Part shown: positions 22,728 to 31,159 of the stretch, piece after piece
How positions within the stretch are numbered: the stretch's first letter is position 1
Layout: every line of letters begins with the position of its first letter
Assembly: GCA_038893995.1 (NCBI GenBank)
Contig: JAWAQK010000001.1
Location: 1-64,000, forward strand
Source of the DNA: Candidatus Thorarchaeota archaeon
GTDB taxonomy: Archaea; Asgardarchaeota; Thorarchaeia; Thorarchaeales; Thorarchaeaceae
Direction of reading: 5' to 3'
DNA length: 64,000 nucleotides
Notes under the pieces: generated by a model
Told to the model about the DNA's origin: nothing
Seen by the model: only the letters and a program-made list of their open reading frames with translations
Database searches by the model: none
Position numbers and translations under genes: made by a program

Positions 22728-23231
22728 ATGCGTCGCATCAGACCAGAGGACGTTCCATCGGTCATGGCGATTGAGAGAGCTTCATTCCCTGTACCCTGGG
22801 AAGAGCGAGTAATACTCGGTTTCGCACAGAGAGGGGGAGCGGCTCTGCTACGTGATGGCAGGAGGGCGTTCTTTGAGGTCTTCGTGACGGAAAACACGGT
22901 AGTGGGCTACATTGCATGGGAGATGTCCAGTAGATCGTCGGAAGACCGTGCTCACGTCATCAACATTGCCGTTGATGAGAGATTTCGGAGAAGAGGCATC
23001 GGTACAGAGATGCTTCGTAGACTGTTCGAGAGGCTCAGGAGGAGACACTGTAGTGGATGCTGGCTTGAGGTCAGACGCAGCAACCTCCCTGCCCAGAGCC
23101 TCTATGAATCGATGGGGATGAGATGCATCGGTGTTCGTCCAATGTACTATAGGAACGAGGATGCACTCATCTATTCCGTCAGCTTTCGGGACCTCGATCG
23201 ACCTACCAATCGCGGACCGATGACGTCATGA
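22728..23231 (+). CDS. rimI: RimI/Ard1-like GNAT N-acetyltransferase
   Basis: IERASFPVPW, NIAVDERFRRRGIG, LEVRRSNLPAQSLY and YY..EDA motifs. Confidence 0.88.
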   Translation: MRRIRPEDVPSVMAIERASFPVPWEERVILGFAQRGGAALLRDGRRAFFEVFVTENTVVGYIAWEMSSRSSEDRAHVINIAVDERFRRRGIGTEMLRRLFERLRRRHCSGCWLEVRRSNLPAQSLYESMGMRCIGVRPMYYRNEDALIYSVSFRDLDRPTNRGPMTS

Positions 23232-26200
23232 AACAGCCTCAGATAGACAGGATCTGTGCTCACAAGGGCAACTGTGTCATCACCCATTTCAGAGCCCGCA
23301 ATCACTATTTCCTCACCGTCGCGCAGGGCGAGGACTGGAGGAGTCTCATGCTCCCAGACCATCCATCCCGGAAGCTGATCTGCCACCTGAGAGGCGCCTT
23401 CCACGGCCGGCAGCAAGAGTACGCGTCGGTCCGGGACCTCGATTGCAGCAAGATGCCCCATATCAAGCATCCTGACGTCTGGAACGGATATGATAATGGA
23501 CTTTGTGGCTCGTGCCGCCATCTCGAGAATGTGGGCCTTGATCTCGTCTGCGCCCCTGACAAACCAGCTCTTGTCTGGTTTCCTCGCGAGGGCCTGAATC
23601 ACCTGTCCAATGGCCGAAAGGACAGAGACCGAGTCCGAGATCAGAGCGTCCATCTTCTCCGCAGTCTCGGTGATGGCACTTCCGGCCTTCTCAAGCCCGT
23701 TTGCAGACTCGGAGGACCATTCTGTTAGGGCTCTGTCAGTGTCGGTCTTGAAGTCGTCAAGGGCACGGCTGATCTTCTCTCTACTCTCTGATATACCATC
23801 TCCGGCGTTCCGCTTGACTTCAGCGAGTTTCTCTCTCAGGACCGGACCCGTCGAGTCAACCTGCATGCGTAGATCGGTGTCTAGTTGTGACAACTTCGAA
23901 CCAAACTTCTCCTTGACTCCGTGAGCTGCTGACTCAAATCTTCGTGCAGTGAGAGCACTGGCAGAATCCAAAGAGTTAGTGAAACTTGATGCAACTTGGT
24001 CTCGCATAGACCTGATCCGGTTCTCGGAATCGTTCAGGAAGGTGTCGAAGTGTGTCATCGTGGATTCTGCAGATTTCTGATACTTTGAGATGACGGCTCC
24101 TGTCTTCTCTATCAGCGTGCCCTGGCCCTCTCCAGTCTTCACGGTGAGGGACAGACCGATGTCGGACACTGTATCAGTGATGGATCTCTGAAGACCGGAC
24201 AGGATCTCGATGCCTCTATTGACCTCTGCGACTGCTACCGACTCCACGTTGTCTGCATGCTTGTTCGCATGCTCAACCGTATGATCAAGGAAACTCCTTG
24301 ACAACTCTTCCACGAGGCTGGGACCGCGTTCTCCCTGTTCGGCCAGCCCATCCTTCAGATCCACAAGGGCGCCTTCAAAGTCGCGGTGCAACTGGTGGAC
24401 CTTGTTGTCAAGGTCCGCGGTCATAGTGGCCAGACCATTCAGTGTCTTCTCAATTGACTTGCTGATGGTGACGGATTCTGTTCCCAGCAGTCCCGATGCC
24501 TCTGACTCGAGCTTGGCCATGGTGGCAGTGACATCCTCTCGGACCTTGTTCAGAATCTTCCCGCTCTCTGCTTCACTCTCTGTCAGTTTCGACTGGTATG
24601 AATTCAGTGCGGCGCCGGAGGCACTGATCGACTCGGTTGTGATTCTGTCAACACTTGCCAAGATGTCTGATAGAGCCTTCTTCCTGGATTCATGACTCTC
24701 TGCGAAGAATGCGTCCACAATTGATCTTACTGACGATATCTGTTTGTCTACGGACGACCGCAGAGATTCCTCAATCATTGAGAAGGTCTCGCCTATGCTC
24801 TGTCGGATCCTCTCCAGAGAATGTTGTGTATCAGTCGATAGACGGATGAGTTCATTGCTGAGTTCGCTGACTGACCCGGACTCTTGTCTGAGGGCTGCCT
24901 CTGTGGTGCTTATGAGCGACTCGAGATTGGTCACAGCCTCCCCTACGATCGCCGAGAAACGTGCGTTCTGGTCCTGGAGTATCTTCTGTAGATCTTTCCT
25001 TGTCTCGAGTATCGACTCGGAGGCCTCGGTGAGTTTCTGATTCAGCAGGGCAGCATACTCATGCTGCATATCCGCAGACTCGGCCTTGAGGGCCTTGACT
25101 TCTGCCTTGACCATGTTCTTGAACTCTATGTCCATTGAGCTGAGCATCTCACTTGTTCGAGCAACCTGGGAGGATATCAGCGTGTCCAGGGACTTCTCGA
25201 CATCCTGCACCATCTTGAGGAACTGAGCCGTGATGTTCTCGGCATGTGTGTGGAACTCGTCCCTGAGGGTAGCTGAATGTCTATTCAGCGCGTCGATATG
25301 GCGGTCCATCGAGCTTTCGAGAGACTTCTGGGCCTTGTCTGCATGGGCGAGTATGGATGATATGCTCTCCGCAACACGCTTCTCAACCAACTTGTGCAGA
25401 CGCTCATAGTCCTCTTGAAGTGACTCGACACTAGCGAGAGCCCTATTCTCGTAGTCTGAGAGGACAGATGATGTAGTGGACGTTAGCTCCGACTCGAGAT
25501 CCTGTACGGACCCCTTCATCTTCTCGAGCGCGACCGATCTGTTGGTCTCGAATTCAGACAGAATCTCTTCAAATGACGAGGTCATCTTTGCACCGGTGTT
25601 ACGTGCGAGATCCTGAACCTCGGCAGACCTCTTTGACATGGTCGAATCTATGTTGCCGAGCATGATGTCTAGCTCTTTGTGCACACCCTGACTGAGTGAC
25701 TTTGACCACGCATCCAGTTCAGAAACAACCGAGTCTCGGACTTCTTCGGAGCGTTGCAACTCAGACTCGTATTGAGCCTGTATCGCCCGTGCAACCTCCT
25801 CCCTCGTATTGGAAATTGACCTTCTAAGATCTGCACTCATGGCGCCCGCGAGCTCGGCCAGTGTGGAGTGCCGACTGTCAAGGATAGATGATATTTGCGA
25901 GAGCTCTCTGTCCAGTGAGTCGAGAACGGACCGTCTGTACGAACGGTCAAGATCGAGTATCTTATTGAATGCGTTCTTGAGAGATTCAGATGAACTGGCC
26001 AGGGACGCCTCAATGTTCTTCCGCACAGTGGCCAGTCCGTCTCGCGAGGATGCCACCATCTCGGAAACCCTCCCGAGAGTGACGTCTATGGCATCGATTG
26101 GCTCCTTGTACAGCTGGCGGGCACTCTCAACCAACTGCGAGAGAGAACCCATACCACGAAGATAGGCCTGACGTAGTCCCTCCCTGAAATCGGCAACTTC

Positions 26201-27091
26201 ACTATTGATGTTACCCAACATCTTCTCGAGGAGAGGACGCACCCGACCGATTGATTCTGCTGTGGATGACTCAAGCCCCTGCGTGAGATCTGCCCATATG
26301 TCCTGTATGACAACACCCATCGTATCGTATGCTTCTAGGAGCACCTTCTGGGTGACCTCCGCAAAGGCTGCATTCGTCTTTCTGAGGCCATCCAATGCCT
26401 CCTCGAATTCTCTGTGTCGGGTCTTCAGATCATCCTCGAACTTCTCCACCAGCCGCGTTGCTTCTTCTGCAAACGACTCCTTTACGCCGTCAAGTTCCTC
26501 TCGCAACGAGGCGAGACCGACTTCGAATGTTTCGTCCTGCGTGGCTCTCGCATTCTCCAGGATGGCCCCTGCTGCCCCTGAGAAGCCATCTATGGCATTT
26601 GAGACGATCCCGAGGGCGTTTTCTATCTCCCTATCGAGGAGTTCATCGAGGGATGTTTCTAGTGATCTGAGTTCGTCTCGTATCACACCGACTGCCTTTC
26701 CGGTGGCCTTCGAGAGACTGTCACGATTAGCAGCTATTCTCTTTGTTTCCCTGCTCAATAGGGTATTGGCTTCCTTGGTGAGAGACTTGATCTTGACGGA
26801 AGTCGAATCGAGATGCTGAATGAGAGTTTCCAGAGGCAGGACGGGATGGTAGACTGTCACTATCCCATCGACCCTGGCCAGTAGACCCTGCTCAACAAGC
26901 TTCTCGACAACCTTGCTCACCTTCGACTCCTTCTCCCCAACGAGAGACGAGATCGTTCCGAGTGTCAGGTTCATCCCCATATAGGTACAGGACAAGACCC
27001 GAGCCGCAAGCTCGTTGAGGCCAAGTTTGGACGCAAACAAGGAGATTCTCTCATCAACTGACTCCTGTCTATCGCTCAATTTCCCCATCAC
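23171..27091 (-). CDS. giant TrmB-like protein: N-terminal wHTH, ~1050-aa helical insert, C-terminal TrmB effector/PLD-like domain
   Basis: The N-terminus LGLNELAARVL...LVEQGLL...YHPVLP is a TrmB wHTH. The C-terminus WFVRGADEIKAHILEMAARATKSIIISVP...RDGEEIV..VSTDP is a TrmB effector domain. The middle is almost Pro-free and rich in S/E/L. Confidence 0.8.
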   Translation of the reverse strand: MMGKLSDRQESVDERISLFASKLGLNELAARVLSCTYMGMNLTLGTISSLVGEKESKVSKVVEKLVEQGLLARVDGIVTVYHPVLPLETLIQHLDSTSVKIKSLTKEANTLLSRETKRIAANRDSLSKATGKAVGVIRDELRSLETSLDELLDREIENALGIVSNAIDGFSGAAGAILENARATQDETFEVGLASLREELDGVKESFAEEATRLVEKFEDDLKTRHREFEEALDGLRKTNAAFAEVTQKVLLEAYDTMGVVIQDIWADLTQGLESSTAESIGRVRPLLEKMLGNINSEVADFREGLRQAYLRGMGSLSQLVESARQLYKEPIDAIDVTLGRVSEMVASSRDGLATVRKNIEASLASSSESLKNAFNKILDLDRSYRRSVLDSLDRELSQISSILDSRHSTLAELAGAMSADLRRSISNTREEVARAIQAQYESELQRSEEVRDSVVSELDAWSKSLSQGVHKELDIMLGNIDSTMSKRSAEVQDLARNTGAKMTSSFEEILSEFETNRSVALEKMKGSVQDLESELTSTTSSVLSDYENRALASVESLQEDYERLHKLVEKRVAESISSILAHADKAQKSLESSMDRHIDALNRHSATLRDEFHTHAENITAQFLKMVQDVEKSLDTLISSQVARTSEMLSSMDIEFKNMVKAEVKALKAESADMQHEYAALLNQKLTEASESILETRKDLQKILQDQNARFSAIVGEAVTNLESLISTTEAALRQESGSVSELSNELIRLSTDTQHSLERIRQSIGETFSMIEESLRSSVDKQISSVRSIVDAFFAESHESRKKALSDILASVDRITTESISASGAALNSYQSKLTESEAESGKILNKVREDVTATMAKLESEASGLLGTESVTISKSIEKTLNGLATMTADLDNKVHQLHRDFEGALVDLKDGLAEQGERGPSLVEELSRSFLDHTVEHANKHADNVESVAVAEVNRGIEILSGLQRSITDTVSDIGLSLTVKTGEGQGTLIEKTGAVISKYQKSAESTMTHFDTFLNDSENRIRSMRDQVASSFTNSLDSASALTARRFESAAHGVKEKFGSKLSQLDTDLRMQVDSTGPVLREKLAEVKRNAGDGISESREKISRALDDFKTDTDRALTEWSSESANGLEKAGSAITETAEKMDALISDSVSVLSAIGQVIQALARKPDKSWFVRGADEIKAHILEMAARATKSIIISVPDVRMLDMGHLAAIEVPDRRVLLLPAVEGASQVADQLPGWMVWEHETPPVLALRDGEEIVIAGSEMGDDTVALVSTDPVYLRLFHDVIGPRLVGRSRSRKLTE

Positions 27092-27105: not shown

Positions 27106-27879
27106 TTAATCCTTCCTGCTGTGTCCGGATGCACTTGATACCGCTTCGAACACTTCTTTCACCGCCTCGACCTCTACCGCCGGTGCGCTCTCCCCGACAA
27201 GGACTTCGACTGTGATGTAAGTACTGTTGTTGTTGACTCGGAATCTGATGTCAGTGAACTGCTGCATCTTCTCGTTGTCCAGCCTCCTTGTGACCGCTGC
27301 TCGGGTCGCGTCTGTGGACAGCTCGAGAATCCACCAGTTCAGGGCAGTGTCCTCGATGCAGAACTTGACATCATAGTACTCTGAGAAGAGCTGTGAATAC
27401 AAACGGAATTCCTCGAGATCGTCCAGTCTGTATCTCAGAGGGTTCACGATCACAAGCCCACGGCTGAAGTCAAAGTGAAATATGATGTCATTTACCATCA
27501 CTAGAAGTATGTTGCTTCCCTCAACGCGAGCCCTCCTCTGCCATTTCGTGAAGAAGTGTGAGAGGAACTGCTTTATTGAGCCCATCTTCAATATCGTGAG
27601 GAAGTCCTTTATCGGGACTCTGCGATTTACCATCCTGTGACCCCTGCCCTCGGTTATGAATAGTCGTAGCTGGTCCAGAAAGACTGAGTAGCAATAGGCG
27701 GGCAAGTCCCGCTGGTCAACGCCCAGCTCGATGAGCAGGTTCAGGAAATTGCGTTCGTGGCAGGCGGGATTGACGCTGCAGCCCAGCCGGTTCTCTTGAC
27801 ATTCAGTACATTTGACCTCGTGAAGTTGGAGTAGTTCACGTGCAAGCTGGTCATCTGAGGGGCGGTCAAGTAGATCCAT
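27106..27879 (-). CDS. hypothetical protein with N-terminal Cys cluster
   Basis: CTEC..CSVNPAC..YCY motif. Ends 14 nt before the giant TrmB gene. Start uncertain. Confidence 0.7.
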   Translation of the reverse strand: MDLLDRPSDDQLARELLQLHEVKCTECQENRLGCSVNPACHERNFLNLLIELGVDQRDLPAYCYSVFLDQLRLFITEGRGHRMVNRRVPIKDFLTILKMGSIKQFLSHFFTKWQRRARVEGSNILLVMVNDIIFHFDFSRGLVIVNPLRYRLDDLEEFRLYSQLFSEYYDVKFCIEDTALNWWILELSTDATRAAVTRRLDNEKMQQFTDIRFRVNNNSTYITVEVLVGESAPAVEVEAVKEVFEAVSSASGHSRKD

Positions 27880-28063
27880 TCTGGCTGAGAGTTTCTTGTT
27901 ATGTGGCTGGTACTGCATGAAGACACACCGCAGGGAACAGACAGCAGTGAACGGCAGGCCCCGGAGAAGGACAGGCTGCGTACACAGCGGCATGGCCTCA
28001 GATGTTTCAGAAAGATAAACCTATTCAATGTGCGCTGGAGGGACTCGTTTGGAGAGTGAGCAT

Positions 28064-28999
28064 TCAGGCCTTCGAGAGCTCCTTGAGCTTCACGGTCCAG
28101 CCACGGATCTCCTTGTTCAGACGCGCAATATCATTGTCATTCAGCGTGGCGGTCGGAGGATAAGTCTTCAGTTCACGAGCAATGGTTCCAATCTGAAACA
28201 GTATTGGGGACTGTCCGGGGATCATCCCAGCAAGCTTGTCACGAACTTCTTCCAGAGCCCTGGCCATCACTGAGGCCTCTGTCTGTGGAGTGACTTTCCT
28301 CAAGAGCTTTTCCATCAGACCATCAAATGAGGATGGCAGACCCTCGGCAAAGACTGACTCTGGCGCTGCCCTCTCTTCAGCGGGCGTCTTCCGTGCCTTC
28401 TGCCTCGCATCGGCGTCAGTTGCGCCCTCTGTGACACACGGTTCAGCCATACCCGAGATCTTGGACGCAAGCGCAGTGATGTCCTCAATCGCACGGTTGT
28501 ACTTTCTCTCAATGCTGTCCAGCTGTCGTACAATTATCCCAACGATCTCTTTGGTCTCCCCTAGGCTCTCTGAGAGGTCCTGCATGCGCTCTTCCAGCGA
28601 GGAGAGCCCAGCAATGTACTGCTGAAGGTCATCGAGCCTGTTGCCAAGTGTTTCAATACCAGAGGATGTGGCTACGGTCTTCAGCAAGTCCTTGACCTCT
28701 TGAAGAGCAACCTCCAGAGAGTTGATCCTGGTGGGAATAGACTCGACCGATTGAAACGTGCCAAGTCGCCCATCAATCTCCTGGATACGTTTCGCAAGAT
28801 CGTCGACGCTTGGGAGGGAGTGGACCTTCTCCAGTATGTCGGCAGTACGTGTGTCGAGAGCTTCAACTCTCTCCACGAGGGAATCGATCTGAGAATGGGT
28901 GGGAGTTCCAGCTCTCATCTCTTCAAGTTGCTTTGCTAGGACCTCCACGCTCCTGACTAGACTATCGTACGAGTCTGGAACTTGGTCTGTCACACACAT
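28064..28999 (-). CDS. coiled-coil protein with small C-terminal helical bundle
   Basis: Heptad-rich N-terminal ~190 aa, a linker, then an ~85-aa helical domain. Confidence 0.75.
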   Translation of the reverse strand: MCVTDQVPDSYDSLVRSVEVLAKQLEEMRAGTPTHSQIDSLVERVEALDTRTADILEKVHSLPSVDDLAKRIQEIDGRLGTFQSVESIPTRINSLEVALQEVKDLLKTVATSSGIETLGNRLDDLQQYIAGLSSLEERMQDLSESLGETKEIVGIIVRQLDSIERKYNRAIEDITALASKISGMAEPCVTEGATDADARQKARKTPAEERAAPESVFAEGLPSSFDGLMEKLLRKVTPQTEASVMARALEEVRDKLAGMIPGQSPILFQIGTIARELKTYPPTATLNDNDIARLNKEIRGWTVKLKELSKA

Positions 29000-29911: not shown

Positions 29912-31159
29912 TCAACTACACTTGTCAAGTAGGGGCTCGAGAGTTTCGCCCATCTCGATTGTCACTTGCTCTTTGAAGAACTTCAGTATGTCTGATTCTA
30001 TTGCGGCCTTGAATTCCTTCAACTTGTCCAGCTGACGCCGTATCTCGTCCTTGACACGGAGAAGATCGTTGGTGTGGTACTCAAGATTCTTCTTTGCCTC
30101 CTCGTATCTTCCCTCAAGCTTGGCAACAGCGGCATACACCTCAGAACCTGCGAACGCCCTTCTCCGTTCATCTAGTGCTCTTGCCTCCATCTGAAGACTC
30201 CTGAGGCTGCCTGCTCGTATCTCGTCGATCTCTTCTACTGTCCTTCGCTCGAGTCGTCGGTCCTTGAGGGGGAGTGTGCCCTTGAGGACTGATTCCTTCA
30301 CTGCACCCAGACCCTCGCAGAGCGCTGGATAGCCGTCCGCATCCGCTAGGATCGCCTTTAGCGGTTGTTCAAAGTACTCTGTCAGTGCCTTCTGACCGTC
30401 AGGACCTATCCGCACGCCCGTGTCATGCTGCATGAACTTCTTGACGGGCTTTCTCAGTGTGTTCAACCTCATCCTAAGGAGACCCTGGATTCGGTCCGCC
30501 TCAGCATCCAGATTCAGTATCTCCGACACATTGGATCTTGCCTTGAAGTCATTGAGTTCCCGTTCTGCGGCCCCAAATTCGGCACGTGCCTGCTGGAGCT
30601 TCTCGCATATCTGTCGGACACTCTCTGCATATTGCTCCTTGCCGAGTGTTATCTCTTCAAGAGCCTTGATTCGACCACCAATCCTCTCGAGGTCCTTCAC
30701 CCAGCTGAACTCGTATAGCAGAGAACCGATAGTCTTCATCTCTTTCGACAGTTCGCCCATGTAGACATCAAGCTGCTTTATGGTACTCTTGTGACGCTTG
30801 TCCATCCGACGTATCCATCTGGCACCTGCCCCCCAGAGTTCCTGTATGAATCTCTGTATCTCTGCCATCATGGCCTCCGTATTCTCATAGGTGATCTCCC
30901 TCTTGATGTCGAAGTTGGTCACTATCTCATCGACCTTAATGGCAAAACGCGTGGAGATCCCTGCAGTCTCTGGGTCCTCTGAGTCTGTGTCATCTTTCAG
31001 GTCACGGGCCGCGATCTGTATCTCCTTCAGCGATCGCTCCACGACCTTATAGCTCTTCTCAGCCCGTCTGACGAATTCTTTCGATCTGTCAGCCAGTTGC
31101 TTGTGGTACCAGCTCATCAGCTTTGGAATAGTAAGGGTGACCATATCCTCGCACACCAA
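29912..31159 (-). CDS. coiled-coil-rich hypothetical protein
   Basis: 415-aa E/K/R/L-rich helical ORF. No catalytic motif seen. Confidence 0.8.
   Translation of the reverse strand: MVCEDMVTLTIPKLMSWYHKQLADRSKEFVRRAEKSYKVVERSLKEIQIAARDLKDDTDSEDPETAGISTRFAIKVDEIVTNFDIKREITYENTEAMMAEIQRFIQELWGAGARWIRRMDKRHKSTIKQLDVYMGELSKEMKTIGSLLYEFSWVKDLERIGGRIKALEEITLGKEQYAESVRQICEKLQQARAEFGAAERELNDFKARSNVSEILNLDAEADRIQGLLRMRLNTLRKPVKKFMQHDTGVRIGPDGQKALTEYFEQPLKAILADADGYPALCEGLGAVKESVLKGTLPLKDRRLERRTVEEIDEIRAGSLRSLQMEARALDERRRAFAGSEVYAAVAKLEGRYEEAKKNLEYHTNDLLRVKDEIRRQLDKLKEFKAAIESDILKFFKEQVTIEMGETLEPLLDKCS

Follow-up and report, generated by a model that had tools for sequence, protein, structure and literature searches.

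A gene in the window analysed here, a 64,000-nucleotide stretch of a Candidatus Thorarchaeota contig, encodes a protein with TrmB-type domains at its two ends and about a thousand helical residues between them, and thus raises the question of what a TrmB-family protein does with so long a helix. The original prediction had read it as a structural DNA-binding rod and had named straight or right-handed coiled coils and lipid-binding helices as models for its middle part.

The giant gene and its neighbour

The giant TrmB-family gene occupies positions 23171..27091 of the minus strand as an uninterrupted reading frame of 1306 codons. It starts with GTG, followed by ATG as codon 2, and the database protein (P0002) begins four codons downstream. 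Because full-length orthologs were present in 58 of the 61 genomes of the same family, the frame is real and not an assembly chimera, an outcome that the original prediction had allowed for. The protein family was found in 289 of the 301 Asgard genomes sampled, frequently as two paralogs, so that nearly every sampled genome encodes at least one such protein. Its members carry the database names 'hypothetical' or 'sugar-specific regulator TrmB'. A literature search found no published description of a giant TrmB-family rod protein, and a word-based homolog search with the giant protein returned only the self-match. The protein has no transmembrane segment, and its net charge as a whole is -60. 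It also lacks a Walker A motif and gave no SMC/Rad50 ATPase match in Pfam or NCBIfam, in agreement with the earlier view that it is not an SMC; a STAND-ATPase/second-rod operon was looked for and was absent at the giant-gene locus and at the paralog locus.

Upstream and co-oriented lies a gene (27106..27879, minus strand; frame open to 27993, likely start Met39) that stops 14 nt before the giant gene and encodes a protein with five invariant Cys residues in the arrangement C-x2-C-x6-C-x5-C-x22-C. This protein fell into no known family, and Pfam, PDB-profile and ESM-Atlas searches gave no lead. The two genes adjoined each other on the same strand at each of the 19 family loci; in other Asgard families, all 12 same-contig cases showed them adjacent and co-oriented. 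At least seven Asgard families have the five-cysteine gene immediately upstream of the giant gene; it had no giant gene beside it in f12, f16 and f24. We regard the five-cysteine protein as a probable partner of the giant protein.

Terminal domains of the TrmB type

The N-terminal segment (residues 22-85; 26837..27028, minus strand) was recognized as a TrmB-type winged helix-turn-helix by the Pfam TrmB model and by a family profile. The Pfam model (PF01978) scored 25.0 bits on it, slightly below the cutoff of 25.6, and 28.5 bits on the paralog. Single-sequence PDB searches with either terminus yielded nothing useful, the matches coming with profiles: the top PDB matches of a 21-sequence family profile at the N-terminus were TrmBL2 (5BPD, E 1e-7) and TrmB (3QPH, E 4e-7), which bears out the winged helix predicted there. 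The recognition helix of TrmB reads DNA via Tyr50/Asp51 (PMC4158304, Table 1). The window protein has Ser/Lys at the aligned positions, and the Tyr50 position varied among the family members read, being K, G, E or S but never Tyr; MreA, a DNA-binding member of the TrmB family, likewise lacks Tyr50 (PMC4158304). The net charge of the winged helix was 0 in the window protein, with a family mean of +3, which makes charge an equivocal guide to non-specific DNA binding. The absent Tyr50, this winged helix of zero net charge and the strongly negative protein as a whole count against binding of DNA by the heads, which is putative.

The C-terminal domain (residues ~1173-1297; 23201..23575, minus strand) spans about 125 residues, after which the protein ends, and was assigned a PLD fold of the TrmB/TrmBL2 type by profile and by AF2/Foldseek. 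The Pfam model Regulator_TrmB (PF11495) matched 11 of the 21 family members (best E 1.7e-6), the match covering only profile positions 3-100 of 233. In Foldseek, the AF2 model of the domain (pLDDT 85.9) found TrmBL2 chains first (9e-8 to 3e-6) and PLD-fold proteins next; its match to 2F5T, the sugar-binding domain of TrmB, stood at 5e-7 with an rmsd of 3.1 A over 138 columns. An HKD motif (H.K....D) was absent from the domain. As judged from profile and model, the C-terminus corresponds to one half of the TrmB effector domain, the PLD-like one, and lacks the sugar-binding half, as does TrmBL2; the effector-type C-terminus proposed earlier is hence of the TrmB type, but it is this half only and not the full effector domain. 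Since a profile of the C-terminal domain found only 203 proteins among 1.84 billion, with no set of classical TrmB length, the giant proteins form a separate subfamily.

A hendecad rod of fixed length

Between the two domains, the hydrophobicity spectrum and phase delimited a hendecad helical rod of 1049 aa with a period of 11/3 (residues ~102-1150; 23642..26788, minus strand), the rod ends being defined by phase jumps in the family-mean hydrophobicity. As one continuous helix, the rod would measure 156 nm. The spectrum consisted of one peak at 3.658 residues with a power of 924 (maximum of 100 shuffles, 113), as against 5.6 at 3.5 residues, i.e., no heptad signal, and the autocorrelation peaked at lags 11, 22, 33 and 44. 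The hydrophobic seam was narrow (positions a, d/e and h; about 29% hydrophobic), and prolines numbered four per 1070 residues (0.4% Pro in the rod). The almost proline-free helical middle, the L-L-F-F-L series of hydrophobic residues at every 11th position and the hendecad rather than heptad repeat, all read originally from the single sequence, were thus confirmed. In all orthologs the phase skips by +1 residue within the N-terminal half (~317-359; 26015..26143, minus strand), and a zone of irregular, weak periodicity at ~806-906 forms the mirror image of this skip in the C-terminal half. Foldseek of a rod fragment gave no significant match.

The alignment of 57 orthologs over residues 20-1170 contained, at a rod identity of 20-37%, a single indel of one residue. 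This lone deletion, near residue 736 (24884..24886, minus strand), was unique to the window protein, in which it causes a second phase jump, and an AF2 helix break also fell at this site, beside a conserved Gly. Within this family, to which the finding is confined because orthologs from other Asgard classes (~16% identity) aligned too unreliably, the length of the rod is constant to the residue. The maintenance of a length of 1049 residues at such low identity is an unusually strong structural constraint and points to a ruler, strut or tether.

Antiparallel pairing about a central motif

Within the rod, the N-terminal half is paired antiparallel and in register with the C-terminal half, the pairing being centred on residue ~625 in a central motif (residues ~607-643; 25163..25273, minus strand) delineated by conservation, coevolution and AF2; residue i lies opposite residue ~1250 - i, or ~1248 - i when locus numbering is used. 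MI-APC coevolution along antidiagonals gave one sharp peak with its apex at 621-625, which occurred in all seven separation bins (7/7) and had a naive z of 12.4 at an effective number of sequences of only 26. Conservation of the two halves was best mirrored at i + j = 1248, with r of 0.67 (mean 0.17, sd 0.21 over 700 sums). An off-centre AF2 fragment (residues 401-1101, midpoint ~750) showed the helix broken at 620-623 (locus numbering), with a pLDDT profile mirrored about the break and the confidence minimum (46-48) exactly at it. In a natural ortholog of 1537 aa, 232 residues are duplicated in tandem (74% identity) with ~625 as the centre, so that every i/j pair is kept, and the rod ends sum to 101 + 1149 = 1250 (locus numbering).

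The central stretch was also the best conserved of the whole rod (3.2-3.3 bits vs a rod mean of 2.1). Q622-F623 is nearly invariant, residue 625 is T/N/S in 90% of orthologs, G/P/N/D make up 5% at 622-626 (9.5th percentile of the rod), and the hendecad phase runs continuously across the centre. Packing there is tight: under i + j = 1248, F612 lies opposite G636 and I619 opposite G629, large residues against glycines. The conserved G629/N635-G636 were considered as a hairpin loop and rejected, as they lie 5-12 residues off the centre and opposite F612/I619.

Proposed architecture and alternatives

Taken as a whole, these features are best explained, in our tentative view, by an extended-linker member of the TrmB/TrmBL2 group that forms an antiparallel two-chain strut with DNA-holding heads. 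The linker helix of TrmB/TrmBL2 would have grown about 35-fold, from ~30 to ~1049 hendecad residues, and its pairing would join two chains, in the manner of the TrmB crystal dimer, into a stiff and acidic strut ~156 nm long, at each end of which one chain would contribute its winged helix and the other its PLD-like domain. More speculatively, the heads might bind DNA non-specifically by analogy with TrmBL2, the strut might hold two DNA sites, or DNA and a partner, at a constant distance from each other, and the upstream five-cysteine protein might act together with it. In TrmB, the linker helices contact each other through Phe81/Ile91', Phe84/Leu88', Leu88/Phe84' and Ile91/Phe81', that is, antiparallel and intermolecularly (PMC4158304). 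Because TrmB dimers pair between chains and the centre of the rod is free of loop-like residues, we lean slightly, by analogy, to the strut over a hairpin formed by a single chain; the unbroken hydrophobic phase, the scarcity of G/P/N/D, the near-invariant Q622-F623 and the lowest AF2 confidence at the supposed turn incline slightly the same way. Such a hairpin is nevertheless a serious possibility. Its chain would turn at ~625 and pair the N-arm (102-622) with its own C-arm (628-1150), giving a ~78-nm rod with both TrmB-type domains at one end and, like Rad50, SMC or chemoreceptors, a conserved free tip as the binding site for a partner. All four pairing signals (coevolution, mirrored conservation, AF2 and the duplication) fit it equally well, as do the rod ends; AF2 folds the rod fragment back at 620-623; the best-conserved part of the rod is its centre, as at chemoreceptor tips; and chemoreceptor hairpins, Rad50 and the MukB elbow figure in the weak, non-significant Foldseek list. 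Long antiparallel coiled coils, such as those of SMC, Rad50 and chemoreceptors, are moreover mostly intramolecular, and a very tight turn is possible because T, N and S, the residues found at 625, are typical helix N-cap residues. A single-chain model is, however, forced to render inter-chain couplings as a fold-back, and in a hairpin the 1537-aa variant would bury two 'tip' motifs in the arms or branch the rod. The predicted rod length of more than 100 nm accordingly stands if two chains pair and falls if one chain folds back.

The remaining explanations account for less of the evidence. A parallel, in-register coiled-coil dimer or filament of the Scy/FilP kind, longer than 150 nm and with both winged helices at one end, would share its hendecad period with Scy and other straight coiled coils, but it leaves unexplained why residues i and 1248 - i coevolve, why conservation is mirrored, why the halves match in length and why the duplication is centred. 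Parallel homodimers tolerate 11-residue indels, yet none occurred among the 57 orthologs. We therefore consider this arrangement very unlikely, and the Scy-like right-handed coil named at the outset gives way to antiparallel pairing. In favour of an amphipathic helix that binds lipids or membranes like those of apolipoproteins, perilipins or LEA proteins, and that would tether DNA to the membrane, one may cite the Pfam model Apolipoprotein A1/A4/E (PF01442; 75.9 bits in five stretches, below the cutoff of 90), an ApoLp-III match and ApoB100 at the head of the non-significant Foldseek list. The amphipathic repeats of that Pfam family are 22-mers punctuated by Pro. The narrow seam, however, comprises three strong and two partial positions of 11, without lysine flanks or proline punctuation, the net charge of -60 speaks against it, and exact length conservation with mirrored pairing would be unexpected on a lipid surface; the lipid binding suggested earlier is thus highly improbable. 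That the protein is an ordinary sugar-responsive TrmB repressor whose linker is long by chance is scarcely credible: one source labels a relative 'sugar-specific transcriptional regulator TrmB', but the sugar-binding subdomain is missing (PF11495 positions 3-100 of 233 only), Tyr50 is absent, sugar genes were not found nearby, and a rod of 1049 residues, fixed to the residue, is no mere linker. A structural role is a better fit than that of a simple repressor, as the original prediction had held.

The centred duplication of the 1537-aa variant shows a simple route from a short dimerisation helix to a giant rod with no contact lost. It is conceivable, if rather doubtful in all its parts together, that these proteins constitute undescribed Asgard struts of fixed length, namely ~156 nm antiparallel dimers with TrmBL2-like DNA-binding heads, dyad-centred growth and a five-cysteine partner, by which DNA is bridged or spaced at a set distance. 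If the heads bind DNA, the family would provide a chromosome-organising element of a new kind in the prokaryotic lineage most closely related to eukaryotes; a DNA-bridging strut, if true, would stand in these organisms as a non-ATPase counterpart of SMC/Rad50-type DNA tethers.

Comparison with known systems

The arms of Rad50, SMC and MukB resemble the giant protein in carrying heads, here only putatively DNA-binding, on antiparallel coiled-coil arms of 50-100 nm, and in having irregular zones matched between the two arms; unlike them, the giant protein has a hendecad repeat and no ATPase, hinge or zinc hook, and their structural matches to the rod fragment were not significant. The cytoplasmic hairpins of chemoreceptors (MCPs; e.g., 2CH7) are antiparallel, with fixed length classes, a conserved centre and symmetric length changes. 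The giant protein is alike in its long antiparallel helical pairing, its lineage-fixed length, its most conserved centre and length change symmetric about it, whereas the two share no sequence relation, the MCP repeat is a heptad, the MCP match to the rod fragment was not significant (E 0.06), and MCPs have been proven to fold as intramolecular hairpins, which dimerise into a four-helix bundle.

Closer relationships were found within the TrmB family itself. TrmB from Pyrococcus furiosus and Thermococcus litoralis (3QPH and 2F5T) has the same winged helix, and its first effector subdomain shares the fold of the C-terminal domain (2F5T). Its linker helix forms an inter-chain antiparallel coiled coil about the dyad (PMC4158304), a pairing rule that the giant protein would follow with a helix about 35 times longer. 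Unlike TrmB, the giant protein lacks the second, sugar-binding subdomain, Gly320/Glu326 and Tyr50/Asp51. TrmBL2 (TK0471/PF0496; 5BPD, 5BPI, 5BQT and 5BOX), a chromatin protein of Thermococcales that binds DNA non-specifically, differs in its size of 264 aa and its pairing helix of ~30 residues, as compared with 1049 hendecad residues here, and in Tyr50, which the giant protein has not retained. It nonetheless has a winged helix, a pairing helix and a PLD-like C-terminal domain without a sugar site in the same order, and it was the best PDB match for both ends of the giant protein.

TrmB-type ends of the giant protein

In the source assembly (2.33 Mb, 82 contigs, 91% complete), the minus-strand ORF at 23171-27091 is open for 1306 codons. 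A Pfam search matched residues 22-85 of its product to the TrmB winged helix at 25.0 bits, just below the 25.6 cutoff, and gave sub-threshold apolipoprotein-type matches in the middle of the protein. The best PDB matches of a profile of 21 family N-termini were TrmBL2 (PDB ID: 5BPD, E 1e-7) and TrmB (3QPH, 4e-7), spanning the winged helix and the beginning of the next helix. As for the other end, 11 of 21 family C-termini matched Regulator_TrmB in Pfam (best E 1.7e-6), exclusively within profile positions 3-100 of 233, and the fold of an AF2 model built from the final 166 residues (pLDDT 85.9, pTM 0.75) matched that of TrmBL2 chains, with E-values of 9e-8 to 3e-6, and that of the sugar-binding domain of TrmB (2F5T; 5e-7, rmsd 3.1 Å), with PLD-fold proteins next. 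On the basis of these profile, Pfam and model matches, both termini are of the TrmB type, as originally proposed; of the effector-type C-terminal domain also proposed, the TrmB/TrmBL2 fold was recovered, but with the PLD-like half alone. The protein contained no HKD motif, transmembrane segment or Walker A motif, the last in agreement with the original observation.

Hendecad periodicity of the rod

The hydrophobicity spectrum of residues 96-1165 exhibited a single sharp peak at 3.658 residues with a power of 924, whereas 100 shuffles reached 113 at most and the power at 3.5 in the same residues was 5.6, so that the Fourier comparison of 3.67 with 3.5 came out on the side of the hendecad. The autocorrelation peaked at lags of 11, 22, 33 and 44, and the 11/3 phase was steady across hundreds of residues, with two one-residue jumps near 330-350 and 720-735; all orthologs had this period (3.662-3.664) together with the first jump, and the second jump was unique to the window's protein. 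The same 11/3 period was found in 14 of 14 distant homologs and in the paralog. Hendecad positions a and h were 75-86% hydrophobic, d/e 23-58% and one more position 32-37%. This narrow stripe is the seam of a coiled coil rather than a broad face for lipid binding, which argues against the amphipathic lipid-binding helix that had been suggested. The rod was strongly acidic, the net charge of the whole protein being -60.

Distribution and fixed length

Within the same GTDB family, orthologs were carried by 58 of 61 genomes and by all 16 genera. In an alignment of 57 full-length orthologs, residues 20-1170 contained one indel only, a one-residue deletion at about residue 736 of the window's protein, at a rod identity of about 20% between this protein and the others and of 37% on average (minimum 25%) among the remainder. 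Since the rod length is exact to the residue, a role as a spacer or tether is suggested. The window's protein belongs to the most divergent lineage of the family (22-27% identity), and its central motif (25163-25273, minus strand) carries G629 to D, G636 to T, N635 to D and F634 to L at positions nearly invariant in orthologs.

More widely, among 301 Asgard genomes, a profile search detected the C-terminal domain in 289, where it ends open frames of about 750-1800 aa whose lengths are tight inside lineages (e.g., 1794-1797, 857, 838), and retrieved just 203 matches among 1.84 billion cluster representatives. Databases name its members "hypothetical" or "sugar-specific transcriptional regulator TrmB", and our literature search for the giant rod family found no paper. 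One Asgard genus has an equally length-constrained form of 1794-1797 aa (the 1794-aa homolog lies at locus L075, G120:C11), with the five-Cys gene on a separate contig.

The window's genome also encodes a paralog of the same plan, with 1088 aa (contig C5, L003:2557-5823, minus strand), whose relatives are less uniform in size (about 1003-1281 aa) and have no five-Cys gene next to them, as well as a single 256-aa open frame that the C-terminal profile matches weakly.

Antiparallel pairing of the rod halves

Four lines of evidence sharing one centre demonstrated that the two halves of the rod pair in an antiparallel manner. Positions in this section follow the locus numbering, in which each value is one lower than in the protein. 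When APC-corrected mutual information was summed along antidiagonals (effective number of sequences 26), the sole sharp global peak had its apex at 621-625 (naive z 12.4) and was positive in 7 of 7 separation bins. When the smoothed conservation profile of one half was compared with the reversed profile of the other, the strongest correlation (r 0.67, against a mean of 0.17 and an sd of 0.21 over 700 sums) occurred at i + j = 1248. An AF2 model of residues 400-1100, a deliberately asymmetric fragment with its midpoint at 750, had a helix break at 620-623 with pLDDT mirrored around it; this model was weak overall (pLDDT 64.8, pTM 0.30), and its other breaks, at 736 and 918-923, coincided with conserved glycines. 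Finally, the public metagenome ortholog P0017 (1537 aa; cluster of 9 members, several contigs up to 528 kb) contained a 232-residue tandem duplication, 74% identical, in which residues ~510-741 are doubled, so that the conserved central motif occurs twice within its residues ~510-973. The duplicated segment is centred at ~625, the pairing centre, and therefore preserves every i/j pair; we estimated the chance of a random placement within 3 residues of the centre at about 1%.

The rod ends, 101 and 1149, add up to 1250, and the irregular zone at ~340-445 is mirrored by that at ~805-905. Conservation in the rod was highest at 611-677, and a model of this stretch matched the rod midpoint of two more distant homologs. 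Under i + j = 1248, F612 lies opposite G636 and I619 opposite G/S629, the packing expected of closely apposed helices.

One chain or two

Such pairing could arise between two chains or within one. We tentatively prefer, with close to an even chance, a two-headed strut of ~156 nm formed by two extended chains as an antiparallel dimer. In TrmB, according to a review of the family, the linker helices of two chains pair Phe81/Ile91', Phe84/Leu88', Leu88/Phe84' and Ile91/Phe81' as an antiparallel inter-chain coiled coil about the dyad (PMC4158304), and this precedent was counted for the dimer. So were the hendecad phase, which is continuous through residue 624, the G/P/N/D content at 622-626 (9.5th percentile of the rod), the near invariance of Q622-F623 in orthologs, and the lowest AF2 confidence falling exactly at the helix break. 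A single chain folding back into a hairpin of ~78 nm, which we consider only slightly less likely, would fit the coevolution, mirrored conservation, AF2 break and centred duplication equally well. In its favour, position 625 is T/N/S, typical helix N-cap residues, in 90% of orthologs, and long antiparallel coils in nature are mostly intramolecular.

Gene neighbourhood

The gene order, namely a 311-aa coiled-coil protein, the five-Cys protein and the giant protein, then convergent GNAT acetyltransferase, CIA2-like and Rab-like genes, was conserved at all 19 loci of the family. The GNAT gene (22728-23231, plus strand) overlaps the 3' end of the giant gene by 61 nt, an arrangement common to these 19 loci. 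The five-Cys gene (27106-27993, minus strand) is the immediate upstream neighbour of the giant gene in seven or more Asgard families, and it alone among the genes around the giant gene remains adjacent in f2, f3, f7, f15, f21 and f28 (12 of 12 cases in other families with both genes on one contig); it is placed elsewhere in f12, f16 and f24. Present in 215 of 301 Asgard genomes and once in the window's, the five-Cys family combines five invariant cysteines (C-x2-C-x6-C-x5-C-x22-C) with a following region of about 200 residues, and no relatives were found in Pfam, PDB or Atlas. Farther upstream, genes for two uncharacterised coiled-coil proteins of 311 and 415 aa (28064-28999 and 29912-31159, minus strand) flank the DTD2 gene; relatives of both occur at the matching locus in another family within the order and were absent from the searched loci of other Asgard families.

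Comparison with TrmBL2

TrmBL2 is a non-specific DNA binder. DNA binding by the heads of the giant protein would be plausible by analogy, given their likeness to TrmBL2, but we put it no higher, because TrmB Tyr50 is not retained in the family and the winged helix of the window's protein is uncharged. TrmBL2 and the giant protein are alike in their heads, and TrmBL2 likewise has only the PLD-like half in its C-terminal domain.
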